DNA of 64,000 nt from Minisyncoccota bacterium (lineage in GTDB: Bacteria > Patescibacteriota > Minisyncoccia > Minisyncoccales > JAGOPM01): assembly GCA_041651395.1 (NCBI GenBank), contig JBAZJI010000001.1, positions 315,920-379,919 of the forward strand, in the 5' to 3' direction. Below, in pieces: positions 4,987 through 21,176 of the stretch (its first letter is position 1; every line of letters begins with the position of its first letter). The translations under genes were made by a program, and so were the position numbers. The notes under the pieces are model-generated. The model was given only the letters and a program-made list of their open reading frames with translations, did not search any database and had not been told where the DNA came from.

Positions 4987-7900
4987 ATGTCCGAAAGATT
5001 TTTCTATTTTTTGGTTTTTACATTTTTGTTCATATTTAGCATTGGCAGCGCCTCTGCCATGGAAGCCAGCAAATACTGCATTTCTTCGGGGGTGGCCAGG
5101 CCTTGCCCGTTGATCATCAATTCTCTTTTTATTGGTGCCTATGAGAATGCCGCCCAAGCTGATCCGGCCGTAAAAGCCAAAAGTTTCCGCAGCGAAGTTC
5201 ATACCATAGAGCGCGCCGGCTATACGGATACGGCCGATTCTTTCAATATCTCCGAGGAACAAAATATTTATTTTGCCAAATTACCCGCGAAGGGTGATTA
5301 TTTATTGTTTTCTATTTATAATTCCGCCCAGCCTTCGCTCAGTTGGCAAGCCTATGATGAGATCACGAATTTGAATACTAAAATTGCCTGCGCCAAGGAT
5401 TTGGACGGTTTGACTCAGGACAAATTTCGGGATGCCGGTAAAATAGCGGCCAAAAGTTCTGTTGTAGAATTTGTTTGGCCAAAGTTTCGGACGAATTTGA
5501 GCCGGGGCGATTGTTTTTGCCGCTTTCAATTTACTTTACTGGACAAAGATGGAAGAGTTTACGCGCAGTCAGTAACGCGGCCATTATTGGTTTGCGAAAA
5601 CCCGCCCAAAGTCAGCGGCCCGAGAATTGAAACTGACTTTGCCAGCATTTCTGCCAATAGTATTATTTTCAGGGGCAATTTGCAGCGTTCGGGTGGCGCA
5701 GCTGAAACGAAAATTGCAGTGCAGATTTTTCCAGAGATTGAACTTGGCAAATTTTTGAATGCCGAGGTGAAAGCCAGCCCCAATAAATATCCCAAAGGCC
5801 AAGCGGGTTATGCGGGCGCGGCCTTTTTTGATGATATTTTAACCATTGCCACGGCCCAAAAATATACTATGGGCCCAGTGGAGATATCGGTCAGTGATTT
5901 TTCTTTGCCCAAGGGCTATTGCTATGGTTTAGTGGCTACCAATTCGGCGGGCAAATGGTATGGCGGGCGGATTTGCGGCAATAATATTTATTATTTTCCG
6001 AAAGTGGAAACGCAACCTTTTGATTATGGCAATAATAAAGGAGCGGCCAAAGATGAAATTTCGGCCATCTTAAAATTTAGCGGGTTTGGTAGCGCTAAAG
6101 ATCGAGCCAATCAAGAAGCGGGGGAATCTGCACCGGGACGTGTTTGGTTTGAGGTGCGCGCCAGATACTCCGGTGCCAAATTGGAACAGGTTGGCGCCTT
6201 TGACGCTAAAGTCGGGCAAAAAATTTCAGGGTATAGTGCGGCCAAAAAGCAGGGCGATTATTGTTACAGAGCAGCGGCGATTAATAAGGCGGGAGTCAGC
6301 TACGGCAAAGAAATTTGTATCGGGCAGGAAGGTTCTTGGCCTAATTTGCCAAAAACCAAACCTATTGTGGGCCCGCCAAGCGAAGCGGGTGGTAAAAAAG
6401 AAACACCCCCAACCCCCCTTAAGCCCGCTACGCCGACTTTGTCGACCGGTGGCTATTCTTATGACAATTTTCCCAGTCCGATAAGATTTAAGGCCTCTTG
6501 GGGGAGCTTTAGCCAGAGCCAGTATGGCATGGATGTCAGCTATTGGGTGTATTATTGGAAACAGGGTGAGGAATTTAGTGAAAAAACAGCCCAGAAAAGC
6601 GCTGTGCTTACCAAAAAGATCGGCAAGGGCATGGAAAAAACTACCCAATATCTGGTTGCCGCCCGCAATGATGGCTTTTTCCAAGGTTCATTTTTTGGCC
6701 AAAGCGGTATGGGTTTGGCGCAGAGCTATTGCTATGCGGCCGCGGTTAAAAATAATTCTACAGGTGAAACTTTAATTGATTTGGCCGGCCAAAAATGTTT
6801 CGAGATTGCCAGCCCGGTGGAGATTGTCCAAAATCATCTCGCCGGATACGAAACGGCGATATTGGAAGCTAAAGTTTCCGCAGTTGAGGATGGGGCCTAT
6901 GGTTGGTTTTGGGTTTTTAAGCCTGACAGAAAGCTCGACATTGCCGCCAGTACGGCATATCAAACTTGCCAGTCGGTCGCCCAAGAAATCGAAAGCGCCA
7001 TGGCCAAGCTCAAAGCCGCTGGAAAAAATGAAAAGTCCAAAGAGTATAAGGATTTATTGGCCCGCTATGATGTGCGGCTGTCTTTGGGCACGGTGCAAGG
7101 ATTAAAGCAGGGCGATACTTTTAAGTATGCGCTTTCCGGGCTAAAGAGCGGCTCTGGCTACTGCGCGCAGGCCCGGATACGAAATTTTTTGAACAAGACT
7201 TTTTCGAGCGCTTTTGCGCCGATTTTAACGCAGGATTACGAGGCGGCCAATTTGCAGCTTTATGATGTTGTCGAGCGTGAGGAAAAATTCGGGCAGCGAA
7301 TCGGGACAAATAAACTTAAAATCGAAGGTCAGCTCAAGGATAATGGCGGTGATGGCAAAGGCCAAATTTATGCCTTGCTTTACGAAAGTGATGTTTTTGC
7401 TCTTGACGGCACACCGGATTGCAATATTGAACTTCGGGATAAAAAAGGCCGCTATCGGGTTAAAGTCATAAAGGGGAAAGTTTTCCCGACTTCCTTAATC
7501 AAGCAGGATTTGGCTTGGGATTTTGATAATTTGGAGGCGAGCAACTATTATTGCTATCAACTGATATCCGTTAATAAGGCAGGGACAAAATATTCGGCCC
7601 CAAAGTTTGCCTCGACCTATTTGTCTGATAAATATGTGCGCATGTATCCGGCTGATCCAGTAAAAGAAAGATCGGCCCAGGCGCATGTTTGGGTTGATAC
7701 AAGTTATCTTGCCGTTCAGAGGGGCTATAAAGTAGATAAAATTACGGTTAGCTACGGCGCTTTAAGCGGGTCGGTCGCTACGGAAAAGGGCTGTAAGCTC
7801 AGCGGAAGTAATTCTCTTTCGGGGAAAGAATTAAATTTAGAATCTGATAATCCGGTAAGCGTGCCGCTTAATTCTTTGTGCGTTAATACGAATTATACAG

Positions 7901-9795
7901 CTCGCGCGATTGTCGGCGTTAGATTGGGTAACCAGAAATCCACTCTTAATTCGCTTAATCAAGACGAGTTTAAGACTTTAGCTTTGCCTCCGCAAATTAA
8001 CGGAGCTAAGTCGTCTTTTAAGTATTTCGATGGTGATGGCTCCGGGCAGGCAACATTTAATATTGTGACTTTGGGTGGAAACAATAAAATCCGCTATAAG
8101 TTAAAATTAATTCCCGTTGATGGAGCTTGCCCCGAGGAGACTACGGCGCAAGGCCTGGTTTTGGAGGCGAAAAGGGAATATAAAGACCCCGCATTTAGTG
8201 GCGAGGAGAAAATTACTTTCACGAATTTGAATTTGGATGGCGGGCAGGCTTATTGCGCTTATCTGGCTGCTGAGCCCATCGCCTTGGGGATGAGGGGGAG
8301 CTATTTTGCCCCTGGCAATGGTTGGCGTTTTCTGGTTTTGGCTAGCGGGCCGCGGGTTTCTTTGGGCGAGTTTGATCCGGAAAAAAGTTTAACCATTATC
8401 AATAGCGAACTATTCGCCAAGGCTATTTTTGATCTGAAAAAAACCGGAGACAAAGGGAAAAAATTATTTATTGATCTTAGTTATGTGGTCAAGCGGGCCA
8501 AGCCCAAAGTTGTATCCGAGACTTTCCATATCCAAAAAGAGGTCGATATCTCGGGGCGAACTTTGGAAATGGTAATCCCGCAGCGCAATGAATTCCGCCA
8601 ATCAGAAAACTTCAAGTTCATCAAGCCTGATGATATTGTTTCTGTTTCTGCTAAGGTCAAAAATTCTTCCGGTGTGAGCGCGGAGCTTTCCGGGTTTACT
8701 TTCCAATTTCCCAACCTTGGGGCCGGCTCGAGCGCCGGAACAATTAATGTTCGGCTTAAAGAAACATCGCCGAGCAGCGGTTATGTTAATTATAATGTGG
8801 AAGTGCTTTTCAAGCCCGCTTCCAATACTTGGACTAAGAACGGCAAAACCGCCGAGGCGACTTTTTATCATGTAGCGACAGCGGCAGAAAGAGCTAACGA
8901 CCCGCTTTGCGGCCAGTCGATGAATATTAAACTGACTAATCCCGTCTTTGACGAGGAAACGCAAACTATCTCTTTTGTCGATACCTTGCGCCAAATTCCG
9001 CCGCGATGCAAATTCATGGTTTCGGTGCATTTTGAAAATTATTGGAAGCGCGTTTCCATGGGTTCTTGGCCGAATTTTTCACACAACGGCTATCCCAGCA
9101 CGATTTACAGGCAAGTTTGCGGCTACGATGGCGGGGATTGCATACCCAACGGCAAATATTATGATGTTTTCTTGCGCGAGCCGGATAAATGCGGCGCTGC
9201 TGCTGATGGGGATTGCCCGATGATGACCATGGCCAATATGCTCAGGCATTGGTATGACTCTGACAATGCTGTTCGCAGTTACATGTTTGATAGAAATATT
9301 TATAAGGGCATGAGCTGGTCCAAAGCTTCTTTTGTCCTTAATGGGGGAAGTGGTTGCAATGGCACAATCGGTAATTTGAAGCTAATTAATGATCAGTTAA
9401 CTGAAATCGATAATTCGCTGCCCTTTGGCCGTAAAACGAATTTGCAGGCAGTCAGCATTTTGCCCTCTGGTGACAGCGAGGAATCTCGTTCGCAATTACT
9501 TGACGAGGTGTATCGCCGCGCTTTAAGCAAGGGGATACCCGCCTCAGTGCGCTGTTGCCGCAGTTGGGGAGCGGGCCAACATTTCTTTTTGTTGCGCGAT
9601 GTCATTTATCGGGATCCGAACAAAAAATCCAGTGATGATGATTTGATTTTGATTGCCGATTCAAGTTGCAGCCGCGGTAATGCTGTGACCCGCCGCCAAT
9701 ATTTGGATTCTGAACGCTGCGGGCAAATAGCCGCCTGCCGTGACGGCTATAGTGTGCCGATTGACGTTATCATGTATTGGCTAGAGAAAAAGTGA
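4987..9795 (+). CDS. Giant secreted protein: FN3-like repeat array with a C-terminal papain-like (C39-like) cysteine peptidase domain
   Basis: ATG 4987 gives the signal peptide MSERFFYFLVFTFLFIFSIGSASA; the track start at 4966 is TTG. Repeated beta-sandwich modules end in motifs such as GYCYGLVATNSAGKWYG, DYCYRAAAINKAGVSYG and NYYCYQLISVNKAGTKYS. The C-terminus has Cys (DCPMMTMANML), His (GQHFFLL) and Asp (LIADSS) in papain-like order. Confidence 0.6.
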   Translation: MSERFFYFLVFTFLFIFSIGSASAMEASKYCISSGVARPCPLIINSLFIGAYENAAQADPAVKAKSFRSEVHTIERAGYTDTADSFNISEEQNIYFAKLPAKGDYLLFSIYNSAQPSLSWQAYDEITNLNTKIACAKDLDGLTQDKFRDAGKIAAKSSVVEFVWPKFRTNLSRGDCFCRFQFTLLDKDGRVYAQSVTRPLLVCENPPKVSGPRIETDFASISANSIIFRGNLQRSGGAAETKIAVQIFPEIELGKFLNAEVKASPNKYPKGQAGYAGAAFFDDILTIATAQKYTMGPVEISVSDFSLPKGYCYGLVATNSAGKWYGGRICGNNIYYFPKVETQPFDYGNNKGAAKDEISAILKFSGFGSAKDRANQEAGESAPGRVWFEVRARYSGAKLEQVGAFDAKVGQKISGYSAAKKQGDYCYRAAAINKAGVSYGKEICIGQEGSWPNLPKTKPIVGPPSEAGGKKETPPTPLKPATPTLSTGGYSYDNFPSPIRFKASWGSFSQSQYGMDVSYWVYYWKQGEEFSEKTAQKSAVLTKKIGKGMEKTTQYLVAARNDGFFQGSFFGQSGMGLAQSYCYAAAVKNNSTGETLIDLAGQKCFEIASPVEIVQNHLAGYETAILEAKVSAVEDGAYGWFWVFKPDRKLDIAASTAYQTCQSVAQEIESAMAKLKAAGKNEKSKEYKDLLARYDVRLSLGTVQGLKQGDTFKYALSGLKSGSGYCAQARIRNFLNKTFSSAFAPILTQDYEAANLQLYDVVEREEKFGQRIGTNKLKIEGQLKDNGGDGKGQIYALLYESDVFALDGTPDCNIELRDKKGRYRVKVIKGKVFPTSLIKQDLAWDFDNLEASNYYCYQLISVNKAGTKYSAPKFASTYLSDKYVRMYPADPVKERSAQAHVWVDTSYLAVQRGYKVDKITVSYGALSGSVATEKGCKLSGSNSLSGKELNLESDNPVSVPLNSLCVNTNYTARAIVGVRLGNQKSTLNSLNQDEFKTLALPPQINGAKSSFKYFDGDGSGQATFNIVTLGGNNKIRYKLKLIPVDGACPEETTAQGLVLEAKREYKDPAFSGEEKITFTNLNLDGGQAYCAYLAAEPIALGMRGSYFAPGNGWRFLVLASGPRVSLGEFDPEKSLTIINSELFAKAIFDLKKTGDKGKKLFIDLSYVVKRAKPKVVSETFHIQKEVDISGRTLEMVIPQRNEFRQSENFKFIKPDDIVSVSAKVKNSSGVSAELSGFTFQFPNLGAGSSAGTINVRLKETSPSSGYVNYNVEVLFKPASNTWTKNGKTAEATFYHVATAAERANDPLCGQSMNIKLTNPVFDEETQTISFVDTLRQIPPRCKFMVSVHFENYWKRVSMGSWPNFSHNGYPSTIYRQVCGYDGGDCIPNGKYYDVFLREPDKCGAAADGDCPMMTMANMLRHWYDSDNAVRSYMFDRNIYKGMSWSKASFVLNGGSGCNGTIGNLKLINDQLTEIDNSLPFGRKTNLQAVSILPSGDSEESRSQLLDEVYRRALSKGIPASVRCCRSWGAGQHFFLLRDVIYRDPNKKSSDDDLILIADSSCSRGNAVTRRQYLDSERCGQIAACRDGYSVPIDVIMYWLEKK

Positions 9796-9850: not shown

Positions 9851-9940
9851 TAGAGATATTAAATGCAATTTTTTGCTAAAACCGCGGGTGTTAATGGAAT
9901 CTAAGCCTAAAAGGCTTGATTTTATTAGCAACTTCGTGCA

Positions 9941-9996
9941 TTGATTTTTTGTAAAAAATGTGCTATAATATAAGTATTAACAGTTAAATAAGGAGG
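9941..9996 (+). promoter_or_regulatory. Promoter + SD of 142-aa gene
   Basis: TTGATT (9941), 17-nt spacer, TGC-TATAAT (9964), AAGGAGG (9990), GTG 10005. Confidence 0.6.
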
Positions 9997-10004
9997 AAGA
10001 AGAA

Positions 10005-10433
10005 GTGAAGAAAAATAATATCTTACTGGTTGCTGGAATCGTTGTTGCTCTTGCCCTTCTGAGCGTTGCCTATTTCTGCAACCAAGAAAGGGTCGTATTG
10101 GAAAATGATTACGCAATGTATGTTTCCGATATGTCCGGATATACTGCGCAAAAGCTCAATGTCTGTTTTACCTTAAAGGTTAAACAGATTCCCGATTCCG
10201 GTTGGCTTTTTGCCAAGCTCTCCTATGAAGAGCAAAAGGACGGGAAGTGGCAACAGTATGCAGAGTGTGAAGCTGGCAATACCACGAAGCTTGGGCCATG
10301 GGTGCTTACCGGAGATCCTGGGGCATACCGCGGCGAAGGTTTTAGGGTAAGGATAACGCTTTATCAAACCAGTGCTTATGAATCCTTCATTGTCTTAGGC
10401 CAGTTGGGAACATTCTATTTCCCGGAAAAGTAA
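10005..10433 (+). CDS. Hypothetical membrane-anchored protein
   Basis: 142 aa. GTG start 8 nt after AAGGAGG, with its own promoter and terminator. N-terminal TM helix followed by a beta-rich domain. No family recognised. Confidence 0.6.
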   Translation: MKKNNILLVAGIVVALALLSVAYFCNQERVVLENDYAMYVSDMSGYTAQKLNVCFTLKVKQIPDSGWLFAKLSYEEQKDGKWQQYAECEAGNTTKLGPWVLTGDPGAYRGEGFRVRITLYQTSAYESFIVLGQLGTFYFPEK

Positions 10434-10478
10434 TACCCTTAGGGGTCGGGCTGCACGCAAGTGCGGCCCTTTGTTGTA

Positions 10479-10536
10479 TTGATTTTTATAGAATATATGC
10501 TATAATATAGGTAAATTAAAAACTACATAAAGGAGG
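10479..10536 (+). promoter_or_regulatory. Promoter + SD of 220-aa gene/nadD operon
   Basis: TTGATT (10479), 16-nt spacer, TGC-TATAAT (10501), AAGGAGG (10530), ATG 10541. Confidence 0.6.
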
Positions 10537-10540
10537 TTAA

Positions 10541-11203
10541 ATGATGGAGAGGGAAAAACTTTCGATTAGTGATGCGGACGTCCAAGCCATGCTCGCCGAA
10601 CAAGATAGGCTAGAGGGCAATGGGAATGTTGAAATATTGGAAAAGCAGGAATGGTATTTGGCTATGTGCAAATATGATCCAGTGACGGCGAAGGAAATCA
10701 TCGAGGCGATTGAACTTTACGACGATGGTTTTACGACGGCGCTCTCCAATGTGATGCCATATTCTGAAGCTAAAAATAATTCTTCGGTTATCGTTGCCGA
10801 CCTCTTCCGTTTTTTCTGTGTAGCTCTCAGCCCGATCTACCACGCATATGGCTTGTTTCCCAAAATTAAAAGAAGGGATATTCAGATGTTTCAGGCCGGA
10901 AAAGTTTTGCCAAATGCCTCCAAGGAAAGTTTTGGTAAGTGTTGGGTTGAAACTGCGGAAAAATCTTTGGAGTATGTTCGCGAAACGATTAAATTAAGTA
11001 ACGCTCTCTGGTCTAATGTATTTGAAAGCATAGTCACCAGATTTCTAGACCGAGAGTCTTTGGGCTTATTCAGCATGACTTTGGTATTGGTGCTCAGGGC
11101 TAGCAGTTACTTGCTGCCAATGGACAACGGTGAATTGGCTCAATGGTTCGATAAGCAAGTGGATCCGGGTAAGGGAGGAGGAAAGTATGTCGGTAACGGC
11201 TAA
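10541..11203 (+). CDS. Hypothetical cytoplasmic protein, translationally coupled to nadD
   Basis: 220 aa. ATG 4 nt after AAGGAGG. Its 3' end contains the nadD SD and overlaps the nadD start by 17 nt. No family recognised. Confidence 0.6.
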   Translation: MMEREKLSISDADVQAMLAEQDRLEGNGNVEILEKQEWYLAMCKYDPVTAKEIIEAIELYDDGFTTALSNVMPYSEAKNNSSVIVADLFRFFCVALSPIYHAYGLFPKIKRRDIQMFQAGKVLPNASKESFGKCWVETAEKSLEYVRETIKLSNALWSNVFESIVTRFLDRESLGLFSMTLVLVLRASSYLLPMDNGELAQWFDKQVDPGKGGGKYVGNG

Positions 11204-11789
11204 AAAGATTGCAATTTTCGGCGGTAGCTTTGACCCGCCAACGCTTTCACACCGCCGGGCGGCCCAAAAACTGGCCAGCGAATTCGATCATGTTTTTATC
11301 GTTCCTTGCGGGCAGAGATCAGATAAAGGCAAACCGCACGCTATGAGGATGGCTTTGGAGCGCATGGCTATGTGTGATTTGAATTTCTACAACCTGCATC
11401 CCAATATCACTATAGATTTTTTTGATATCCAACACGACAAATTTACAACCACTTTTGAAATGCAAAAGCATTACGAAAGATTGGGCGAAATTTGGCACGT
11501 GGTGGGCGGAGACCTAATCCTGGGCGGCGCTGATGGTTGCTCGGAAATTCAGAAAAAGTGGAGTGAGGGCTGTTGGCTTTGGGAAAATTTGAATTTTGTC
11601 GTTATACCGCGGCCGGGATATCGCTTCTGCTTGCAGGACTGTCCGCCTCACCGCAAAATTATCTGGCTTGATACGGATTGTTCCAGCACTAAAGCGCGCC
11701 AAGCTGCAAAGCAAAATAATTCCCTGCGCAGCCTTGTCACTTCCGAAATTGAAACCTACATCTTCGTCAAAAATCTTTATCAAGATTAG
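11187..11789 (+). CDS. nadD: Nicotinate/nicotinamide mononucleotide adenylyltransferase
   Basis: ATG 11187 follows GGGAGGAGG. Motifs IFGGSFDPPTLSH, VVGGDLI and SSTKAR (SxTxxR) match the NadD/NMNAT nucleotidyltransferase family. Confidence 0.8.
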   Translation: MSVTAKKIAIFGGSFDPPTLSHRRAAQKLASEFDHVFIVPCGQRSDKGKPHAMRMALERMAMCDLNFYNLHPNITIDFFDIQHDKFTTTFEMQKHYERLGEIWHVVGGDLILGGADGCSEIQKKWSEGCWLWENLNFVVIPRPGYRFCLQDCPPHRKIIWLDTDCSSTKARQAAKQNNSLRSLVTSEIETYIFVKNLYQD

Positions 11790-11793
11790 CATG

Positions 11794-11818
11794 GCCCTGA
11801 GAATCTCAGGGCTTTTAT
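11794..11818. repeat. Palindromic element copy 1 (core only)
   Basis: GCCCTGAGAATCTCAGGGC followed by TTTTAT, directly after the nadD stop. Confidence 0.85.
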
Positions 11819-11866
11819 AGTATTAAAATAATGTTTTTCGGGGCTAAAAGGGGAGTAGTGTTACCC

Positions 11867-11923
11867 TTGATTTCTGGCAATTTTATTGTATAATTAAATA
11901 AATTAACAATCGAAAAAAGGAGG
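11867..11923 (+). promoter_or_regulatory. Promoter + SD of 444-aa gene
   Basis: TTGATT (11867), 16-nt spacer, TATAAT (11889), the leader motif AATCGAAA, AAGGAGG (11917). Confidence 0.6.
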
Positions 11924-11931
11924 AAAGTTTA

Positions 11932-13266
11932 ATGGCAGATAAAGCAAATAAATTTGTTTTCGATCCGGCCGCTGCTGCCCCGATTGCGGCAGAATTGGGT
12001 ATTTTTCCGGGAGATCCGGAAGCGGGTTTGGACTTTGCAACGTTTTGGGAGCGGCGCTTGCCAGAAGTTGGCTTTTCTAATGATTCGCATACCCTGAGCC
12101 AATTTGTGGTCCGGCTATGCAAAAAGGCCAAGCAGTTTAGGGAACAAGCGATGACTTTGAATTTTGCTCGGGGCAAACAAATGTTGCTCAATAAGGGCGG
12201 ACTTATTGCTCTTCGCGAATTGGTCAGAGAAGCCTTTGATCCTAGCTGCGATCTTGATTGGGCCTTGGCTTGCTATATTTGGCAAGACGATGTTGACGAC
12301 AACCTGGAGAAGATGGTTAGGGGAAGAATCGTGTATTTGGCGCGCACTTGCTACAACCTCATCTTAAAATCCAATATCAGCCTGCACTCCCCTTTAGGGA
12401 AATGGTTGTTGGCAAAGGTTTTAGAAGATGTGGATGTCGAAGATATCACCCTGCTCTGCTTCTTGGCCAAGGTTCAAAAAATGGATATCTTGGCCAAACA
12501 TGCAGCGCAAAAAGCTTGCCGGCTAACCAAAAACTTCGCCCCAACCTTGGAGCTTGTAAGGCTTTTAGGCTGGGACTTGGTTAGCGGGGACGAAATTATT
12601 GCCCAAAGTCTGGTAGAAAAAGTCTCCAATATTATGGATGTGGCGCATGCCTCCGAGGGGGAAATTCCCGAGGAGCTTGCTAAGGATTTGTGCTTTAAGG
12701 CTTTGCAGGTTAAGGGTTGTTTGAATGAGGCGATTTATGCACATAACTTAGTCATTGCTAATCCCAAGAATGCCCGTTTAGCGACGGCTATTCGCTGGGT
12801 CATCAAGAAGCGCGCCCCACGATTTGCACTTGCTAGAATCGCCTTTGAAATTTTGGATTTTTCCAAAGCACCAGAGGAAGCCTACAAAAATTTTGCCGAA
12901 TTTGTCGCTATGCAGGCCTGCGAGCTGGAAGAAGTCGGCTATGCCATGCGTTTTGTCAGCGATGCCAAACGCAAGGAAGTGGCCGACAGGTTACCCGCAG
13001 CCAAAGGAACATTGTCTGAGCTTATTAATGGCTATAATTATTTTCTGGAATGCAAAATCCAAGCCGCTCAGGGAACGCCCGGGTATACCGATGCTAAAAT
13101 TTGTTTGGACGTGGCAGAAAACGAATACGTGCGCCATGCCAAAGAAATGTGCCAAAGCGATTTGCAGAAATGGTATTATGTGGTCAGTTCGGCCGCCGTG
13201 GGCAGTCGCTTGTATGATGAGGCCTGTGTCAAAATCGGTATGGAAAGAATTCCCTCCACTATTTGA
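11932..13266 (+). CDS. Hypothetical alpha-helical protein
   Basis: 444 aa with its own promoter, AAGGAGG and terminator. No family recognised. Bracketed by palindromic repeat copies 1 and 2. Confidence 0.65.
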   Translation: MADKANKFVFDPAAAAPIAAELGIFPGDPEAGLDFATFWERRLPEVGFSNDSHTLSQFVVRLCKKAKQFREQAMTLNFARGKQMLLNKGGLIALRELVREAFDPSCDLDWALACYIWQDDVDDNLEKMVRGRIVYLARTCYNLILKSNISLHSPLGKWLLAKVLEDVDVEDITLLCFLAKVQKMDILAKHAAQKACRLTKNFAPTLELVRLLGWDLVSGDEIIAQSLVEKVSNIMDVAHASEGEIPEELAKDLCFKALQVKGCLNEAIYAHNLVIANPKNARLATAIRWVIKKRAPRFALARIAFEILDFSKAPEEAYKNFAEFVAMQACELEEVGYAMRFVSDAKRKEVADRLPAAKGTLSELINGYNYFLECKIQAAQGTPGYTDAKICLDVAENEYVRHAKEMCQSDLQKWYYVVSSAAVGSRLYDEACVKIGMERIPSTI

Positions 13267-13288
13267 GCCGCCTAATGCGGCTCTTTTT
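13265..13288 (+). terminator. Intrinsic terminator of the 444-aa gene
   Basis: GAGCCGC-CTAAT-GCGGCTC followed by TTTTT. Confidence 0.75.
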
Positions 13289-13292
13289 CTAA

Positions 13293-13331
13293 AAACAAAT
13301 AGCCCTGAGATTCTCAGGGCTTTTATGTTTG
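13293..13331. repeat. Palindromic element copy 2 (full 39 nt)
   Basis: AAACAAATAGCCCTGAGATTCTCAGGGCTTTTATGTTTG. It lies 5 nt after a separate intrinsic terminator of the 444-aa gene. Confidence 0.9.
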
Positions 13332-13348
13332 GTTTAAGCCAGTTATTA

Positions 13349-13441
13349 TTGACAAAAATATTAAAAAATGTATAGTATAGGGCGCTCAAAATTGAGCGCT
13401 TGCCAGCATTTGTTGGTAAAAATTTACAACTTAAAAGGAGG
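13349..13441 (+). promoter_or_regulatory. Promoter, operator-like palindrome and SD of flotillin gene
   Basis: TTGACA (13349), 16-nt spacer, TG-TATAGT (13371). The inverted repeat GCGCTCAAAATTGAGCGC sits at 13382-13399 over the expected transcription start. AAGGAGG is at 13435. Confidence 0.55.
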
Positions 13442-13448
13442 TTTATTA

Positions 13449-15674
13449 GTGGAAATTGCAGAAATGATGCCTTGGTTGATTGGTATTGGAATAGGGATTG
13501 TGGTTTTGATTGTTTTGCTTTTTATCAAAGCCTCGTTCCATTTCATTCCGGCAGACATGATCGGAGCCGTTAAGAAGAACTTCGGCATCCGGAAACTTAA
13601 GGGAGATCAGATTATTGCCCTCGAAGGTGAGGTCGGCTGGCAGGCAAGCTGTTTGATGCCTGGTTGGCGATTTAAGTTTTGGCCGCTTTATACCGTGAAA
13701 TTGTTCCCGGTTGTCCAAGTGGGCCAAGATGAAATTGGAGTTGTTTTCTCGCAAATTGGAGAAAATATTCCGGTTGGTTGGAGAACGGCTCGCCAAATTG
13801 CAGGAGACACTGAGGAGATTTACTCTGACGTGGGAAGATTTATGCGTGAAGGCGGGCAAAAAGGCATTCAGAGAGCCGTGCTCTCTCCAGGCCACATCTA
13901 CTACATGCACCCGATTGCTTTTGTGGTGAAAACCGCAACCAGCACTTTTGGTATGCCATTCTCTGAATCAGTAGAAGAAACTTTTGGGCAGTATGAGGAC
14001 CAGAAGTACCGGCCCCTTGAAATCAAGACACAGCAGGGTTCAGATGTTGATATTATTGGTTTGGTAACCATCCTTGATGGTCCGCCCAACCCAGATAATA
14101 CTCCGGCTTCTCGCATTGGCGGATTTTCCGATATTCAAGATGCGGAGACGAAGAGGACCGAGGAGGCGAAGAAAAAATACGAGGCTGATATGGAGGCGCT
14201 CGGCGCTAAAGAAAATATTGAGAGGGAGGAATCGAAAAGACAAAAGTTAAGGACAGCAAGAGACAAATTTGATAAAAGTAAGCAGACGCCCGAGGATAGG
14301 CTTGAATACGACGAAGAAGTCCGCAACATCAAACAAATACCCGAAGCTCAAAGGGAATATGAAGAATCAATCCGCAAACTCGGGCTGGATATCATCAACA
14401 TGCTGTTTTTCCAAAGCAAAGTAAATTTGCACAACAGCTACCAAGATATGCAGAAATTCTTCGATGCAGGCGGTTGCCAAGGTTTGCAGCATGATGTCAT
14501 AACTTATGGCAAATATAACTTCAATCCGTTCTTGGTGCGCGTAGAAGAAGCCCGTGGTTTAGTAGTGCCGCAGGGAAAAGTGGCGGTTGTGCGCGCAGGT
14601 GTTGGCTTGGCATCCGAGGATGTTTCCGGCGAAGGATTCAAGCACGGTTTCATAGTTAGGCCGGGCCACAGAGGAATTTGGAACGAGGCTTTGCGCCCGG
14701 GAAAATACCTCATCAACCCACACATCTATGCTACAGAGCTTGTGCCCACTTCTATCATCACGCTAAACTGGGCCAAGGAGACTTCTGTGGCCCACAAGCT
14801 CGATGAAAGGCTCAGTCAAATCAATGCCCGCTCTAAGGAAGGTTTCCAGTTTTCCATTGACCTGCAAGTGCAGATCCATGTTCCAGACACCAAGGCTCCA
14901 TATGTTATCGTCATGGTGGAGAAGATTGACTACCTTGTCTCCGAAGTCTTGCATCCGGCCGTAGGAAACTACTTCCGCGACAAGCTTCAGGGGATGCAGG
15001 CCATCCAATTTATCCAAGAAAGGCAGAAGGTTCAAGAAGAAGCCACAGAACACATTAAGCAGAAGCTTGAAGACTTCAAAGTTGAGTGCTATGGCGTTTT
15101 TATCCAAGATGTTATCCCGCCAGAAGATCTTGTTGATGTTCTCAAAAATGCCGAACTGGCAGTCCAGCAGAAAAAGACTCTTGAGCAGCAGAAGATAACC
15201 GAAGACGCCAGACTTGCTACAGAAAAGTCCAAAGGAGAAGCGGACCAGCAGGCGGCTCTTGCTAAATCGAAAATCGATATTGAAATCAGTCGTAACGCTG
15301 CCGATGCTCAAAAGCTTAGAGCTGAGGGTGAAGGTGGATACAAGGAAAGAATCGGAGAAGCTGAAGGAAAGGCCATCGAAGCTAGAGGTAAAGCTGAAGC
15401 TGAAGTCATCAAGCAAAAAGGTCTTTCTGAGGCAGAGGCTCTTGAAAAGAAGAATAAAGCCTTGGGCGGAGCCGAGGTTGTTGCCAGCATAGAAATCATC
15501 AAGGCGATTGCTGCCAACAATATTAAGATTACCCCCGATATTCTCATCAATGGGGGAGAGAGTGGCGCCGACAAGAGCACAAGCATAGCAACTGCTCTTA
15601 TTGCAAAAATACTCCAAGGAGGAGCTGCACCAAATTCCGCAATAATACCCCCAACAGAAAGCAAAAAATCATAA
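13449..15674 (+). CDS. SPFH/band-7 flotillin-like protein, unusually long
   Basis: GTG 13449 lies 7 nt after AAGGAGG; ATG 13464 is an alternative start. It has an N-terminal TM helix, an SPFH core and a flotillin-type A/E/K-rich C-terminal coiled coil (AEGEGGYKERIGEAEGKAIEARGKAEAEVI). There is an extra K/E/R-rich insert around 14140-14400. Confidence 0.8.
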   Translation: MEIAEMMPWLIGIGIGIVVLIVLLFIKASFHFIPADMIGAVKKNFGIRKLKGDQIIALEGEVGWQASCLMPGWRFKFWPLYTVKLFPVVQVGQDEIGVVFSQIGENIPVGWRTARQIAGDTEEIYSDVGRFMREGGQKGIQRAVLSPGHIYYMHPIAFVVKTATSTFGMPFSESVEETFGQYEDQKYRPLEIKTQQGSDVDIIGLVTILDGPPNPDNTPASRIGGFSDIQDAETKRTEEAKKKYEADMEALGAKENIEREESKRQKLRTARDKFDKSKQTPEDRLEYDEEVRNIKQIPEAQREYEESIRKLGLDIINMLFFQSKVNLHNSYQDMQKFFDAGGCQGLQHDVITYGKYNFNPFLVRVEEARGLVVPQGKVAVVRAGVGLASEDVSGEGFKHGFIVRPGHRGIWNEALRPGKYLINPHIYATELVPTSIITLNWAKETSVAHKLDERLSQINARSKEGFQFSIDLQVQIHVPDTKAPYVIVMVEKIDYLVSEVLHPAVGNYFRDKLQGMQAIQFIQERQKVQEEATEHIKQKLEDFKVECYGVFIQDVIPPEDLVDVLKNAELAVQQKKTLEQQKITEDARLATEKSKGEADQQAALAKSKIDIEISRNAADAQKLRAEGEGGYKERIGEAEGKAIEARGKAEAEVIKQKGLSEAEALEKKNKALGGAEVVASIEIIKAIAANNIKITPDILINGGESGADKSTSIATALIAKILQGGAAPNSAIIPPTESKKS

Positions 15675-15696
15675 GCAGGAATATTCCTGCTTTTTT
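15674..15696 (+). terminator. Intrinsic terminator of flotillin gene
   Basis: AGCAGGA-ATAT-TCCTGCT followed by TTTTT. Confidence 0.75.
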
Positions 15697-15736
15697 AATT
15701 AAAAATCCTCCACTTGAGTAGAGGAAAAACTAACCT

Positions 15737-15775
15737 AAACAAATAGCCCTGAGAATCTCAGGGCTTTTATGTTTG
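15737..15775. repeat. Palindromic element copy 3 (full 39 nt)
   Basis: AAACAAATAGCCCTGAGAATCTCAGGGCTTTTATGTTTG. It matches copy 2 at 38 of 39 positions; the only difference is the central base. It overlaps the stop codon of the minus-strand 180-aa gene. Confidence 0.9.
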
Positions 15776-16309
15776 AATATTATTGAGGGTGGGTGGGAGT
15801 GGCTGCCTTTGGGGCGGCCGGCGTAAGGACCAGGTGCAGTCAATGTCTAGCTTAACGGCTTCTTTGCGGAATTGGTCCATAAGGGGTTGCAGTTCCTTTT
15901 GCCATTTGGTAAAAATTGTAACTTTGGCAGTGTGGCGCATCCCTTCGCCGATTTTTTTGTAAAGCGTGAATTCAATTTTGAATCCAAGCTTGGGTTTGGG
16001 CGCCCCAGAAGGGCTATACCAAAACATCTTGTAAAAATCGTGGACGCGGTAGCGATTGAGGTTTTTTTCTTCCAACCGCCAAGGAACACCATTGGTAAGG
16101 CCTTGGCCTTTTTCGGACATTTTTTTCACCATAACATCGACTATATGCTCCAGCGAGACGCGCCTTTTTTCATCAAGGGAGTATGCCAGATTGATAATCG
16201 GTCGGTCAAAGAGCCGGCGTTCGTTATGGGAATTTTGTCCTGCCCCGGGTTCGCTGACCGGAACAGGTGCGCCATCGGATGTGGCGCAAAGACAAAATTT
16301 CTGTTCCAT
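15767..16309 (-). CDS. Hypothetical protein
   Basis: 180 aa. The minus strand is supported by a consensus promoter (TTGACA-17-TGCTATAAT), a GGAAGGAGA SD and a terminator hairpin. No family recognised. Confidence 0.6.
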   Translation of the reverse strand: MEQKFCLCATSDGAPVPVSEPGAGQNSHNERRLFDRPIINLAYSLDEKRRVSLEHIVDVMVKKMSEKGQGLTNGVPWRLEEKNLNRYRVHDFYKMFWYSPSGAPKPKLGFKIEFTLYKKIGEGMRHTAKVTIFTKWQKELQPLMDQFRKEAVKLDIDCTWSLRRPPQRQPLPPTLNNIQT

Positions 16310-16313
16310 GTCA

Positions 16314-16412
16314 TCTCCTTCCTACCCATTTCGATTTTTAAGATACGACACTGCCACTACGGGTAATAGGGGCGATTGTTGATATTATAGCAAATAATAT
16401 TATATTTGTCAA
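16314..16412 (-). promoter_or_regulatory. Promoter + SD of minus-strand 180-aa gene
   Basis: On the minus strand: TTGACA (16412-16407), 17-nt spacer, TGC-TATAAT (16389-16384), the leader motif AATCGAAA (16336-16329), GGAAGGAGA (16322-16314). Confidence 0.6.
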
Positions 16413-16436
16413 TACGAGGGGAAATAGCCCAAACTA

Positions 16437-16500
16437 TTGATTTTTGTTTATTTTATGCTATAATATATGATAGATAATTAAAAATCGAAAGGGAAAGGAG
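16437..16500 (+). promoter_or_regulatory. Promoter + SD of multi-HTH gene
   Basis: TTGATT (16437), 16-nt spacer, TGC-TATAAT (16459), AATCGAAA (16483), AAGGAG (16495). Confidence 0.6.
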
Positions 16501-16505
16501 TAACG

Positions 16506-17345
16506 ATGCCAATAGAAAACAAATTGGGCATGTTGGAATTTCTTCGCCAAAATATCGGTCAGATGAGCCTGCTAAAAATGGCCCAAGCCCGCAATTTGGA
16601 GCTTGAAGAATTCCGGGAAATTCTCCGATGGTATTTGGACTGCAGTTTGTTGACTCAGCCATTTTCAAAAATGACCACTAAAAAGCTGATTATTAAGTAT
16701 TATGGAATCATACCCAATGCGCGGCTCGCTAAGCTTCTTGGTCTGACCGAACACAGCTTGCGTCAACTAGCCTATGAATTGCGTTCAAAGAAAAAAATGC
16801 TCCCTGAATCTTTTTTCGAGGATGTTATTGCCAAAGAATTGACCTATATTACCACTGATTTGGAAGCCTTGGCCCAAAAGTATAAAGTGAGTTTGGCCGT
16901 GATTTGTAATACTGCCAAAAAGCTTTATGCAGAGGGCAAAATTCCTTCCAAGGTTTGGCGAAAGAAAAAAATTCCTAAGAGGGACCGCTTAACTAATTTG
17001 GAGAAAAAAGTTTTGGAACTCTGCCAGCAAGGCGGGCTAAGCTATGAACAAATCGCCGCTCTTGCCGGTACAACCAAAGGAACGATTGCCCCAATAAAAA
17101 CGCACTTAAGAAAGCTTGGCTATTATTTGCGCGATGAACGCAAATGCCAACCGCGCGCACCCCTTACTGAGTTTCAGGAAAAGGTGCTCCGTTTAAGTAA
17201 TGAAGGCGCCAGTAGTTTTGCCCAGATAGCCATAGAATGCCAATGCGAGAAGATTAAAATAAACAGGGCCCGTGTGCTTTTACGCAAGCGGGGTTACAAA
17301 TTCCCAAATTTGCCCATAGGCCGGCCACCGGCTAAAAATGACTAA
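16506..17345 (+). CDS. Multi-HTH putative DNA-binding protein
   Basis: 279 aa. There are about five helix-turn-helix-like modules. The last two are clear tandem repeats resembling sigma-70 region 4/LuxR HTH (LTNLEKKVLELCQQGGLSYEQIAALAG.. and LTEFQEKVLRLSNEGASSFAQIAIECQ..). Confidence 0.55.
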   Translation: MPIENKLGMLEFLRQNIGQMSLLKMAQARNLELEEFREILRWYLDCSLLTQPFSKMTTKKLIIKYYGIIPNARLAKLLGLTEHSLRQLAYELRSKKKMLPESFFEDVIAKELTYITTDLEALAQKYKVSLAVICNTAKKLYAEGKIPSKVWRKKKIPKRDRLTNLEKKVLELCQQGGLSYEQIAALAGTTKGTIAPIKTHLRKLGYYLRDERKCQPRAPLTEFQEKVLRLSNEGASSFAQIAIECQCEKIKINRARVLLRKRGYKFPNLPIGRPPAKND

Positions 17346-17346
17346 A

Positions 17347-17366
17347 CTGCCTATAAGGCAGTTTTT
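17347..17366 (+). terminator. Intrinsic terminator of multi-HTH gene
   Basis: CTGCC-TATAA-GGCAG followed by TTTTT. Confidence 0.65.
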
Positions 17367-17394
17367 ATTTGCAGAATTTGGGCTCACGCCTATT

Positions 17395-17477
17395 TTGACA
17401 TTTTGAGTTATTATGATATAATATTATAACGAGAAATTATCAATTTCTTGGCTTAATAACCGAATAATAAAAGGAGG
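17395..17477 (+). promoter_or_regulatory. Promoter, leader hairpin and SD of nadE
   Basis: TTGACA (17395), 16-nt spacer, TATAAT (17417), hairpin AGAAATT-ATC-AATTTCT (17432-17448), AAGGAGG (17471). Confidence 0.6.
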
Positions 17478-17482
17478 ATTTG

Positions 17483-19330
17483 ATGCGCAATCTTAAAGTG
17501 GCGATTGGACAAATTGATGTTGTTCCCGGGAATATCGCAATCAATTTGCGAAAATGCTTGGAAACCATAGAAGCCGGTAAGGCACAAGGATGTGAGCTGG
17601 TGGTTTTGCCAGAATTGGCAACCACGGGCTATCTGTTCGGCGACCATTTTGAAAACAGCCAATTCTGCGAGGATGCCAATAATGCTAATTTGGCTATTCT
17701 GGCCGCCTCGAAAGGCATTGCTGTTATTTGGGGAGGCCTAGAAACCGACTTTAGCAAAAAAGGCGAAGATGGCCGGGAAAGGAAATACAATGCGGCCTTT
17801 GCAGCCCAAAACGGTTGCTGGGTAAAAGGCGGAAATGGGAGCGGCGCAACTTATAAGTATCTGCTTCCGGATTACCGTTTTTTCAATGACAAGCGCTATG
17901 TTTATTCCAACCTCCAACTGGAGCAGTCTAAGGCAATGCGCTCGGGAGCGTTGCAAAAACCTTTCGCTTTCCAATTTTTCGGCGAAGAAGTTTTGGTTGG
18001 AGTGCTGATTTGCGAAGACATGTGGACTCAGGACTACGAATTCAAACCCCCGATCCATTTAGTGGATAAGGGCGCTAGAGTTCTGGTCAATGTTTCCATG
18101 TCACCGTTTTCTTGGCACAAGAATCAGACGCGCCATAAAGTGGTCAGTGAAATGTTGCACGATTGCCATGTGCCTTTGCTTTATTGTAACTGTGTAGGCC
18201 TGCAAAACAACTTGAAGAATTACATTGTTTTTGACGGGCGCTCCTCGGTTTACGATTGCGAGGGCAACCTAAGCTATGAGCTGCCACTCTATGAGGAAAA
18301 AATCGCCTTCATCGATTTGAAAATCGAAGGCAATCACCAAAATTCCTGCGTTGTGGCCGAGCAATACGACGACGATCGCGAGCTTTACACTTCGTTGCTC
18401 TATGCCAATAGGCGGATTTTGGAAAGGCACATGCCTAATGGCAAAGTGGTCATCGGCCTTTCGGGCGGAATCGATTCAGCTGTTTCTGCGGCCCTGATGG
18501 TAGAAGCCATCGGGAGCCAAAGGGTGGTGGGAATTAATATGCCGACAAGATTTAATTCCCGTTTGACGCGCGATTTGGCCCGGGAGCTGGCTGGAAATTT
18601 GGGCATCGAGTATAAGGTCATTCCCATTCAGGATCTCTTTGAGGAGACACTCCTGCAACTGCAAAGCGCCGGCGTCTGTTTGAGTGATTTTGACAAACAG
18701 AATGTCCAAGCTCGTCTCAGAATGCAGGTTTTAGCTTCTCTGGCGGCGCATTACAAGGGAATTTTTACCTGCAATGCCAACAAGACTGAGATTTGCTTTG
18801 GCTACTCGACTTTATATGGAGATGTGGCCGGGGCTTATGCGCCAATCGGGGATTGCTTGAAAAGGGAAGTTTATCAGCTGGCCGGATACCATAATCAGGT
18901 AAGCGAGAGAAAAATTCCCCAAGGTATTATTGAGGTGATTCCCAGTGCCGAGCTCAGCGATTCGCAAAAAATCGAAGAGGGTAAGGGTGATCCATTCAAT
19001 TACCGCTATCACGATGAGCTAGTTAGGGCCTTTATCGAATTTGGCCACGATCCGGGAAAAATTTTGCAGCGCTATGACCAGGGCAATTTGGAAAGTTTGT
19101 TGCGCTTAAACCCGGGGGAGTTGGCCGCGATATTTGCCGACCGCCAAGCCTTTGCCAGTGATTTGAGCCAAAAGTGGGCGATGTATAAAAATAATATTTT
19201 CAAACACGCCCAGTGCCCGCCGATTCCGATTATGACGCGCCGGGCTTTCGGCTTTGATTTGCGCGAATGTATTCCGCCCAACGCAATGTCTTATCGCTCG
19301 GAGCTTTTTAATCAACTCCTTGAAAAGTAA
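17483..19330 (+). CDS. nadE: Glutamine-dependent NAD+ synthetase
   Basis: ATG 17483 lies 5 nt after AAGGAGG. N-terminal CN-hydrolase domain (PELATTGY, VLICEDMW) and C-terminal NAD synthetase with the ATP-PPase motif GLSGGIDSAV. Confidence 0.9.
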   Translation: MRNLKVAIGQIDVVPGNIAINLRKCLETIEAGKAQGCELVVLPELATTGYLFGDHFENSQFCEDANNANLAILAASKGIAVIWGGLETDFSKKGEDGRERKYNAAFAAQNGCWVKGGNGSGATYKYLLPDYRFFNDKRYVYSNLQLEQSKAMRSGALQKPFAFQFFGEEVLVGVLICEDMWTQDYEFKPPIHLVDKGARVLVNVSMSPFSWHKNQTRHKVVSEMLHDCHVPLLYCNCVGLQNNLKNYIVFDGRSSVYDCEGNLSYELPLYEEKIAFIDLKIEGNHQNSCVVAEQYDDDRELYTSLLYANRRILERHMPNGKVVIGLSGGIDSAVSAALMVEAIGSQRVVGINMPTRFNSRLTRDLARELAGNLGIEYKVIPIQDLFEETLLQLQSAGVCLSDFDKQNVQARLRMQVLASLAAHYKGIFTCNANKTEICFGYSTLYGDVAGAYAPIGDCLKREVYQLAGYHNQVSERKIPQGIIEVIPSAELSDSQKIEEGKGDPFNYRYHDELVRAFIEFGHDPGKILQRYDQGNLESLLRLNPGELAAIFADRQAFASDLSQKWAMYKNNIFKHAQCPPIPIMTRRAFGFDLRECIPPNAMSYRSELFNQLLEK

Positions 19331-19397: not shown

Positions 19398-19457
19398 TTG
19401 ACAAATATTATAAATAGTTTATAATTAAAGAATTAAAAACCTACATATAAAAGGAGG
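19398..19457 (+). promoter_or_regulatory. Promoter + SD of HD-domain gene
   Basis: TTGACA (19398), 16-nt spacer, TATAAT (19420), AAGGAGG (19451), GTG 19463. Confidence 0.6.
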
Positions 19458-19462
19458 ATTGT

Positions 19463-20243: not shown

Positions 20244-20330
20244 AATTTTCCACAGGCAAAAATGTATTAAATTTGTCGAGCGCAGAGTATAATTAGGCAA
20301 GCAAGGCTGTTTGCGTGGCCGTTGCTTTTT

Positions 20331-21113: not shown

Positions 21114-21176
21114 AGAAAATCCTGAATTTTAATTCCAAAGAATTAAGTCCGAAAGAAATAAAAAAGAAATCAAAAT

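Follow-up and report, generated by a model that had tools for sequence, protein, structure and literature searches.

Direct repeats flanking a flotillin gene in a small group of CPR bacteria probably reflect a bidirectional terminator duplicated by gene insertion

How does a locus in a CPR (ultra-small) bacterium come to carry three near-identical palindromes, all within 4 kb, two of which bracket a single flotillin gene? In the window, by which we mean the whole stretch of DNA analyzed (64 kb of a 952-kb genome, and the scope of the own-genome copy count), a pattern search recovered two full matches of a 39-nt unit (copies 2 and 3; Table 1) with an identity of 38/39, the sole difference being the central loop base (T vs A), at a repeat period of 2,444 nt. 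The same pattern matched in 0/100 shuffled controls. Additionally, the 25-mer GCCCTGAGAATCTCAGGGCTTTTAT at 11794-11818 (copy 1) is identical to positions 15746-15770 in copy 3. When the 21-nt stem-loop was searched with up to three mismatches, three matches were obtained in the 64 kb (11793-11813, 13301-13321, and 15745-15765), none in the shuffles, and no fourth copy was found in the window. The first-pass annotation had described the two 39-mers, the shared 25-nt core, and the lack of any further copy, all of which the pattern search reproduced. It had left several readings of the element, among them a small REP/MITE-like mobile element, a binding site for a protein or recombinase, and the footprint of an insertion.

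Table 1. Features of the locus in window coordinates
Feature	Position	Strand	Remarks
nadD (nicotinate-nucleotide adenylyltransferase)	11187-11789	+	Pfam CTP_transf_like, NCBIfam nadD; gene call in relative L003
Copy 1, hairpin GGCCCTGAGA-A-TCTCAGGGCT + TTTTAT	11791-11818	.	Same place in all relatives, including L010
444-aa gene	11932-13266	+	Lineage-restricted
Intrinsic terminator of the 444-aa gene, GAGCCGCCTAATGCGGCTC + TTTTTC	13265-13289	+	Equivalent gene-proximal hairpin in L010, L011, and L034
Copy 2, predicted 39-nt bidirectional terminator (full unit)	13293-13331	.	Pattern match, fold; left junction ancestral
Inserted segment, about 2.4 kb	13332-15736	+	Absent from L010+L033, L011, and L034
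Insert promoter TTGACA-16-TATAGT (sigma-70-like)	13349-13376	+	Inside inserted segment
5' palindrome of inserted segment	13381-13398		
Flotillin/SPFH gene	13449-15674	+	Inside inserted segment
Flotillin gene terminator	15673-15698	+	Inside inserted segment
Minus-strand-oriented hairpin	15706-15725		Inside inserted segment
Copy 3, predicted 39-nt bidirectional terminator (full unit)	15737-15775	.	Pattern match, fold; 180-aa stop in T-tract
180-aa gene, convergent with the 444-aa and flotillin genes	15767-16309	-	3' end overlaps copy 3; missed by the first-pass annotation
279-aa protein with several helix-turn-helix (HTH) motifs	16506-17345	+	Divergent from the 180-aa gene

The unit is laid out as an A-tract (AAACAAATA), a GC-rich stem of 9 bp, six of them GC pairs, with a loop of 1-3 nt, and a T-tract (TTTTATGTTTG), the perfect 9-bp dyad being GCCCTGAGA-N-TCTCAGGGC. 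A T-run lies 3' of the stem on both strands, reading TTTTAT(G/A)T on the plus and ATTTGTTT(TT) on the minus strand; in the consensus scan, copies 2 and 3 came out as terminator-like in both orientations. Predicted RNA folds over the copies lay between about -17 and -19 kcal/mol for both strands, with z of -3.9 to -5.1 (-17.2 kcal/mol and z -3.9 in copy 1; for copy 2, -18.6 kcal/mol in the plus-strand and -18.1 in the minus-strand transcript). The flanking AAACA..TGTTT arms, noted earlier as an extension of the inverted symmetry, are simply the A- and T-tracts that a bidirectional terminator carries. Every copy sits at a gene 3' end and has a T-tract: the stem of copy 1 begins 4 nt past the nadD stop codon, copy 2 begins 35 nt past the stop of the 444-aa gene, whose own terminator precedes it, and copy 3 begins 2 nt past the minus-strand stop of the 180-aa gene, whose TAA (TTA at 15767-15769) is located within the T-tract. 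We infer that the 39-nt unit would work as an ordinary bidirectional intrinsic (Rho-independent) terminator. It shares with such terminators the GC stem-loop between A- and T-tracts, the U-run on both strands, and the position directly past stop codons, as well as the conservation of structure rather than of stem sequence over greater distance; it differs in that three near-identical copies occur in 4 kb, with copy 2 serving no gene of its own. The hairpin at the orthologous site of a flotillin-less relative (L034) is built on another stem (GCCGCGA/TCGCGGC) in the same layout, again with the stop codon inside the T-tract; at this greater evolutionary distance the structure is conserved and the stem sequence is not.

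These positions also bear on what each copy does. Separate terminator-like hairpins precede copy 2 (stem 13265-13283 followed by TTTTTCT) and copy 3 (stem 15673-15692 followed by TTTTTT), as the first-pass annotation had recognized, and from this it had considered both copies redundant as terminators. That holds for copy 2 but not for copy 3, because the latter directly follows the point where the convergent 180-aa gene stops; copy 3 is the predicted working terminator of this gene and would add a second plus-strand barrier behind the flotillin terminator. From nadD to the 444-aa gene, copy 1 is the sole hairpin of terminator type, and it is the only predicted terminator of nadD.

The dyad could alternatively be an operator for a dimeric protein, such as the neighboring 279-aa multi-HTH protein, co-regulating the 444-aa and flotillin genes. 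Copies 1 and 2 are indeed upstream of the promoters of these two genes, and the HTH gene is syntenic in every lineage examined as part of a conserved 444/180/HTH block. We regard such a role as very improbable, since the distance from the stem end to the -35 box is about 53 nt for copy 1 vs about 27 nt for copy 2, copy 3 is upstream of no promoter, and all copies lie exactly at gene 3' ends with T-tracts. Moreover, common natural variants have a change confined to a single arm (TCTCAGGGC to TATCAGGGC); the loop becomes larger and the dyad is broken, yet the hairpin is kept. The same variants, the differing stem in L034, and a window without a recombinase gene give no positive support to the earlier suggestion of a protein or recombinase binding site.

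Beyond the window, the scan of species-representative genomes returned one related stretch, which is the orthologous locus in a related MAG, and no dispersed copies; the metagenome scan detected only the copy-1 sites of relatives and no other loci, and the viral contig scan found none. The sole match beyond close relatives was a look-alike terminator in a Pasteurellaceae genome. That a small REP/MITE-like mobile palindrome spread to three intergenic sites is therefore extremely improbable: the copies are palindromic, intergenic, about 39 nt long, and near-identical, but they are confined to one locus of the 64 kb, each sits at its orthologous position in all relatives (more than 20 related contigs), no other locus turned up in the exact-match scans, and the "arms" are A- and T-tracts, one of which is coding sequence of the 180-aa gene. 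REP/BIME, Correia, RUP, and MITE-like repeats are likewise short intergenic palindromes able to act as terminators; unlike them, the present element has a single locus, and the only occupancy polymorphism among relatives concerns the 2.4-kb gene insert.

In three lineages at increasing evolutionary distance, the locus is made up of the 444-aa gene and its own terminator, then one hairpin, then the 180-aa gene, and flotillin is absent. In the nearest of these (L010+L033), precisely the 2,407 bp separating the repeats are missing (window 13330-15736): the merged contigs align to window 10293-13329 and 15737-18204 with a single element at the junction, and flotillin had no tblastn match in them. 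L010 and L033 are contigs of a single run, merged on the basis of an overlap of exactly 30 nt (k-1), their adjacency resting on k=31 contigs broken inside the element, with all junction-spanning 31-mers present in the contigs. L011 harbors the 180-aa homolog, two hairpins (one of them AGCCCTGA..TCAGGGCT), and the C-terminal part of a 444-aa homolog; L034 harbors a 435-aa homolog (38% identity, E 7e-91) and a 176-aa homolog along with two hairpins, one of which belongs to the 435-aa homolog, and no flotillin was found at this locus. Together with two close clusters, the L034 protein and the L011 C-terminal fragment comprise the homologs of the 444-aa gene. The first-pass annotation had proposed looking in relatives for gene absence exactly at the repeats, and had offered the footprint of an insertion as one reading; for the flotillin gene this last reading is supported, the gene being missing exactly there with one repeat copy present, which is not the behavior of a common terminator with no tie to gene presence or absence.

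Copy 2 itself retains a trace of the event. Read as the reverse complement, its right end (TTATGTTTG) gives the two final codons and stop (CAA ACA TAA, Q-T-stop) of the 180-aa gene, and CAAACA is coding sequence in the window as well as in L011. These end codons in copy 2 and the empty sites in three lineages indicate that flotillin was inserted once with duplication of the terminator. Additionally, in strains of the L004 type, copy 2 alone has two weakening changes, a stem-top C>A and TTTTAT>TATTAT in the T-tract, which appear to reflect relaxed constraint on this copy. Taken with the observed positions and hairpin stability, the empty sites and fossil codons support an account in which the 2.4-kb flotillin insertion duplicated a bidirectional terminator and gave rise to copies 2 and 3 within a small CPR group; we assign this account a probability of about 0.72.

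The opposite polarity, with flotillin and both repeats ancestral and the gene lost independently between the 39-nt repeats in each flotillin-less genome, is unlikely. A deletion running from one direct repeat to the other would leave just a single copy, the state seen in L010+L033, repeats of 39 nt are long enough for repeat-mediated deletion, and three precise losses by inter-repeat recombination would yield an identical present-day pattern. The 180-aa proteins, however, share 94-99% identity among flotillin-bearing genomes, with identities to these of 91-92%, 59%, and 43% in the flotillin-less lineages, a nesting that sets one gain against three independent precise losses in successive outgroups. 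The single hairpins of L034 and L011 have diverged in loop or stem, and no trace of flotillin-side flanks was found at either site; all of the at least 14 crown-clade contigs keep flotillin, with no ongoing loss seen. Finally, an insertion with duplication would be needed in any case to explain how the repeat came to hold the last codons of the 180-aa gene.

Under insertion with duplication, the ancestor would have had the 444-aa and 180-aa genes converging on two hairpins, namely the 444-aa terminator and the present hairpin, which ends the 180-aa gene. At the base of the window's clade, the 2.4-kb segment would have entered once, just to the right of this hairpin, bringing the flotillin/SPFH gene along with a promoter and terminators of its own, and the target would have been duplicated in direct orientation over at least 39 nt, possibly about 57-64 nt. 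Copy 3 would have retained the termination role for the 180-aa gene, whereas copy 2 would be a stranded relic behind the 444-aa terminator, acting as a redundant second terminator or as an insulator upstream of the flotillin promoter. As to how the duplication arose, we favor repair of a staggered break, or a template switch at a replication fork stalled by the hairpin, after which the terminator would have been re-copied; no enzyme or donor for the insertion was identified. The arrangement resembles target-site duplications and attL/attR in that direct repeats bracket the insert and the empty site has one, and resembles tRNA-gene islands in that one repeat (copy 2) keeps the 3' end of the target gene. 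It departs from them in that no integrase, notable terminal inverted repeats, or donor was found, the insert consists of one housekeeping-type gene, and a duplication of at least 39 nt far exceeds in length those that transposases usually leave.

This would represent a clean, datable case of a reduced CPR genome gaining a complete gene. Insertion at a terminator between convergent genes would disrupt nothing, and the duplicated terminator would keep every gene insulated, such that the tandem "redundant" terminators would record history rather than a new element. It also raises the mechanistic question of a direct duplication of at least 39 nt without a recognizable recombinase. The practical value is limited, the repeats marking the boundaries of a lineage-specific insert and being a likely cause of short-k assembly breaks.

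The flotillin event does not account for copy 1, which is a third paralogous copy of the hairpin, older than the insertion, and may have originated by an earlier duplication of the same kind or by gene conversion. The hairpin could be an att- or attC-like site at which a recombinase encoded elsewhere captures single-gene cassettes serially, the 444-aa gene and then flotillin, with the copies as boundaries. Direct repeats bracket the single-gene insert exactly, the third copy brackets the neighboring orphan 444-aa gene (the right flank of copy 1 weakly resembling the 180-aa 3' end), the bracketed genes share one orientation, as do integron cassettes separated by similar imperfect palindromes, and flotillin homologs occupy unrelated contexts in other lineages. 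We nevertheless consider serial capture by a recombinase quite improbable. About 45 ORFs across the 64 kb, scanned against Pfam, contained no integrase, transposase, or recombinase domain and no intI; inspection revealed no attC core motifs (RYYYAAC ... GTTRRRY), GTT at the element boundaries always being followed by T; and the hairpin, besides being near-perfect, falls well short of attC sites in length. Unlike integron cassettes, the 444-aa and flotillin genes each have their own sigma-70-like promoter and terminator. The 444/180 pairing is ancient, being found in L011 and L034, and thus the 444-aa gene is no recent capture beside the 180-aa gene; the stem sequence differs in L034, other flotillin loci are without flanking repeats, and a single insertion event is documented.

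A related but improbable reading is that the 180-aa terminator hairpin serves as a reusable capture site, beside which self-contained single-gene units insert with the hairpin regenerated each time. The 444-aa gene would have entered first, downstream of nadD, and flotillin later, either through a trans-acting recombinase recognizing the hairpin or through template switching at a stalled hairpin; if true, this would amount to integron-like gene accretion in CPR bacteria. The stem-top base toggles recurrently between A and C in all three copies, which under the same supposition would mean ongoing exchange between them.

The element described by the first-pass annotation was recovered by direct reading and pattern matching as two full 39-nt copies at 13293-13331 (copy 2) and 15737-15775 (copy 3), which differ only at the central loop base, and its pattern was matched by none of 100 dinucleotide-preserving shuffles. 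A search of the 64 kb with the 21-nt stem-loop AGCCCTGAGA-W-TCTCAGGGCT, allowing up to three mismatches, returned only these two and the core hairpin after nadD (copy 1), in agreement with the earlier statement that no further copy exists. The three copies formed one family in the repeat finder, with spacings of 1,508 and 2,444 nt, and the 25-mer of copy 1 at 11794-11818 is identical to 15746-15770. Each full copy consists of an A-tract, a 9-bp GC-rich stem and a T-tract, and would therefore yield a hairpin followed by a U-run on either strand; in a consensus terminator scan, copies 2 and 3 indeed scored as terminator-like on the plus and the minus strand alike. The same scan bore out the separate terminator-like hairpins previously noted 5' of copies 2 and 3. 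RNA folds of the repeats ranged from -17 to -19 kcal/mol (z-scores -3.9 to -5.1). In the spacer between nadD and the 444-aa gene, copy 1 is the sole hairpin, its stem beginning 4 nt past the nadD stop, and copy 3 directly adjoins the 180-aa gene's stop codon. The extended inverted symmetry of the arms, to which the first-pass annotation drew attention, is present, but given this anatomy and the positions at stop codons it corresponds to the normal layout of a bidirectional intrinsic terminator. Taken together, the repeats are real, non-random and predicted to be ordinary bidirectional terminators. No Rfam family was found at the repeats; the 9.8-17.6 kb region, searched at E<=1, had only chance miRNA and snoRNA matches elsewhere. 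A dif/Xer site, considered for the TTATGTT in the T-tract, was rejected by inspection, as both the 11-6-11 architecture and the ATAA...TTAT inner dyad are missing.

Genes and hairpins of the flotillin locus, in window coordinates
Feature	Coordinates	Orientation	Context
nadD	11187-11789		first gene of the locus order, 5' of copy 1
Copy 1, 21-nt stem-loop	11793-11813		
444-aa orphan gene	11932-13266		between copy 1 and its own terminator, then copy 2
Copy 2, 21-nt stem-loop	13301-13321		
Promoter and flotillin/SPFH gene	13449-15674 (gene)		after copy 2
Flotillin terminator, then a hairpin		minus-strand-oriented (hairpin)	between the flotillin gene and copy 3
Copy 3, 21-nt stem-loop	15745-15765		
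180-aa orphan gene	15767-16309	minus strand, convergent	3' end at copy 3
279-aa multi-HTH gene	16506-17345	divergent from the 180-aa gene	then nadE

The host of this locus, which lies on a metagenomic contig of 951,739 bp, is a CPR/Patescibacteria bacterium, whose close relatives are classed in public records as Candidatus Saccharibacteria or Candidatus Paceibacterota. The repeats do bracket the 444-aa and flotillin genes, as first described, but the minus-strand 180-aa gene at copy 3 had been overlooked: its stop TAA (plus-strand TTA, 15767-15769) falls within the T-tract of copy 3, and its last two codons, CAA ACA, make up the TGTTTG arm of the element. Scans with PHROGs, PADLOC, NCBIfam and Pfam gave no identification for the 444-aa and 180-aa proteins. 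Both have very few homologues, a profile search for the 180-aa family returning just 2 cluster representatives among 1.8 billion, and the AlphaFold model of the 180-aa protein (mean pLDDT 54) was too poor for a fold search. The 444-aa, convergent 180-aa and divergent HTH genes form a block kept across four lineages, down to 38-43% protein identity. The 279-aa protein carries several HTH motifs of the sigma-70 region 4/LuxR type and no catalytic domain; it matches the PHROG regulator phrog_323 (E 6e-11) and, weakly, the transposase family phrog_151 (E 2e-4), and its homologues measure 127 aa in L011 and 182 aa in L034, two lineages lacking flotillin.

Comparison with relatives revealed a flotillin-less form of the locus in three lineages. 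Contigs L010 and L033, which come from the same sequencing run and share an overlap of exactly 30 nt (the k-1 of a k=31 assembly), were merged for this comparison. The merged sequence has the order nadD, copy 1, 444-aa gene with its own terminator, one element, 180-aa gene and HTH gene; it aligns to 10293-13329 and 15737-18204 of the window, with 37 nt of the element common to both alignments and the intervening 2,407 bp absent, and tblastn found no flotillin in it. The left flank of this empty site is that of copy 2 and the right flank that of copy 3, as expected for an insertion with target duplication. In L011, one hairpin (read in window orientation as AGCCCTGA-TTTTCA-TCAGGGCT) and then a second one separate a 180-aa homologue (~60% identity) from the C-terminal part of a 444-aa homologue (38% identity, E 4e-10); the HTH gene lies on the other side. 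In L034, the 444-aa protein has a 435-aa homologue (38% identity, E 7e-91) whose gene is followed by its own hairpin, a second hairpin and the gene for a 176-aa homologue of the 180-aa protein (43% identity), again with no flotillin. Hence, exactly at the repeats, where the first-pass annotation had proposed comparing gene content, flotillin varies in presence, and the relatives without it hold one copy there; these empty sites lend support to the suggestion that the repeats are an insertion footprint, as far as flotillin is concerned. The suggestion does not extend to the 444-aa gene, which was not recently captured beside the 180-aa gene, because their pairing is ancient, L011 and L034 already having it.

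In the 180-aa protein, the flotillin-bearing genomes share 94-99% pairwise identity and the flotillin-less lineages stand at 91-92%, 59% and 43% to them, a nested series. On this pattern, a single gain of flotillin at the base of the crown clade (the flotillin-bearing genomes, including the window) is more parsimonious than the rival account, three separate precise losses. Every crown-clade contig reaching the site has the flotillin-side flank, which indicates that the insertion is fixed in this clade. We infer that the repetition of the hairpins records the insertion of the flotillin gene.

The direction of the duplication can be read from copy 2, which lies 5' of the flotillin promoter and contains TTATGTTTG, the reverse complement of the Q-T-stop ending the 180-aa gene; the duplicated segment therefore derives from the point where the terminator meets the 180-aa gene. 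In L011 as in the window, CAAACA is coding sequence. Gapped alignment suggests that the homology may once have spanned CTAA to TTATTGA, ~57-64 nt, with later indels; the sharply conserved 39 nt would then represent what selection keeps as a terminator. The orthologous hairpin of L034 has another stem (GCCGCGA/TCGCGGC) yet keeps the layout, its T-tract again containing the stop codon; this fits a structurally selected terminator and speaks against a sequence-specific recombination site. The earlier idea of a binding site for a protein or recombinase finds no positive support. In the L004-type strains, which are relatives with flotillin, copy 2 alone combines a stem-top C>A change with an interrupted T-tract, and it appears to be a redundant relic that behaves as a dispensable copy.

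The flotillin promoter may be partly built from duplicated 3' sequence of the 180-aa gene, since the possible far end of the duplication, TTATTGA (13346-13354), runs into that promoter's -35 hexamer TTGACA. Just 3' of the -10 box, at the likely mRNA start, we observed a perfect palindrome, GCGCTCAA-AA-TTGAGCGC (13381-13398), which reads GTGCTCAA-AA-TTGAGCAC at the same site in all relatives (L002, L004-L009 and L019-L021). This compensatory double change keeps the dyad or hairpin and suggests a putative operator or 5'-UTR stem regulating flotillin.

Two stretches came up in an exact-match scan of a 596-Gb collection with one genome for each species, the first being this very locus in a MAG 90% identical to the window. 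The second, on the minus strand of L001 (Mesocricetibacter intestinalis, Pasteurellaceae) at 6383-6407, is the identical 25-mer GCCCTGAGAATCTCAGGGCTTTTAT; its flanks are unrelated, and it was set aside as probably a coincidental terminator. A degenerate scan of a metagenome collection gave only the copy-1 sites of two relatives, a pattern scan of viral contigs gave no copies, and more than 20 related contigs hold copies at the same orthologous positions. Apart from the L001 look-alike, the copy number and context in relatives, which the first-pass annotation had recommended checking, thus concern this locus only. With copies confined to this locus and none dispersed in the 64 kb, a REP/MITE-like element is not supported. 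Several k=31 (Logan) contigs start or stop within the hairpin (L010 ends there, L022 and L033 start there), and the repeat is consequently a practical cause of assembly breaks; contigs of one genome overlap at the hairpin by k-1.

As to how the insert arrived, a Pfam scan of the ~45 window ORFs found no recombinase, integrase or transposase domains, and the insert had no blastn match in plasmid or phage collections. The flotillin gene has a GC content (0.469; GC3 0.486) that is unremarkable for the window (mean 0.445 +/- 0.02), and its composition hence shows no sign of foreign origin. The nearest flotillin outside the clade has only 51% identity and an unrelated context free of bracketing repeats, and the flotillin homologues of genomes L015 and L016 have no bracketing repeats in their flanks and neighbor genes unrelated to this locus. 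Ordinary transposase target duplications are too short to match the direct duplication of at least 39 nt seen here. An origin by cruciform resolution predicts that the right flank of copy 2 is the exact complement of the left (TATTTGTTT); the observed sequence is the direct repeat TTTTATGTTTG, which excludes it. We favor a staggered break that was repaired, or template switching during replication at the hairpin, by which the terminator would have been re-copied. Campbell-type integration of a circle bearing the same sequence could have occurred only as a secondary transfer from one relative to another. A role of the hairpin as a reusable site directing gene capture fits the data but is unlikely. 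No described precedent was found in the literature searched. The insert ends (13332-13340 and 15726-15736) are weakly inverted-complementary, GGTT...AACC in the window and GGTTTAA...TTAATCC (6/7 match) in the relative L019, extending the dyad by a few bases, and this may be due to chance.

Copy 1 has the hairpin and TTTTAT in common with copies 2 and 3, its right flank bears a weak resemblance to the 3' end of the 180-aa gene, and it is already present in the flotillin-less L010; it is an older paralogue. In L010, copy 1 and the other copy differ at 5/25 positions, two changes per copy looking lineage-specific, which implies that the ancestor shared by the window and L010 had two almost identical hairpins. 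Possible sources of copy 1 are a previous rearrangement by which the 444/180/HTH block came to lie beside nadD, and gene conversion.

The base at the top of the stem (11805, 13313 and 15757) toggles between A and C independently in all three copies. In copy 1 the window alone has C, all other genomes examined having A; in copy 2 the L004-type strains have A where others have C, and in copy 3 A was seen in the relative L012 and C in others. Short-tract conversion between copies, or a mutational hotspot associated with the hairpin, could account for such toggling. Of the 18 sites that vary at the strain level in 2.4 kb, 3 lie in or beside the elements (64 nt), a modest enrichment. The first base of the stem likewise alternates between G and A, as seen in L010 and in the copy 3 of several strains.

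Further repeated modules occur around the locus. Promoter modules that are nearly identical, TTGATTTTT...TGCTATAATATA, lie ahead of the 142-aa, 220-aa and 279-aa HTH genes at 9940-9972, 10477-10509 and 16435-16467 (73-85% identity over 33 nt; ~50-60 nt long in blastn), and an RBS module is repeated at 17453-17480 and 19433-19460, 5' of nadE and a 248-aa gene. Additionally, very large ORFs of 1,609 and 2,004 aa with internal repeats, and neighboring, probable surface proteins with dockerin and Big_5 domains, occupy the regions 4966-9795, 24605-30619 and 20322-23534.
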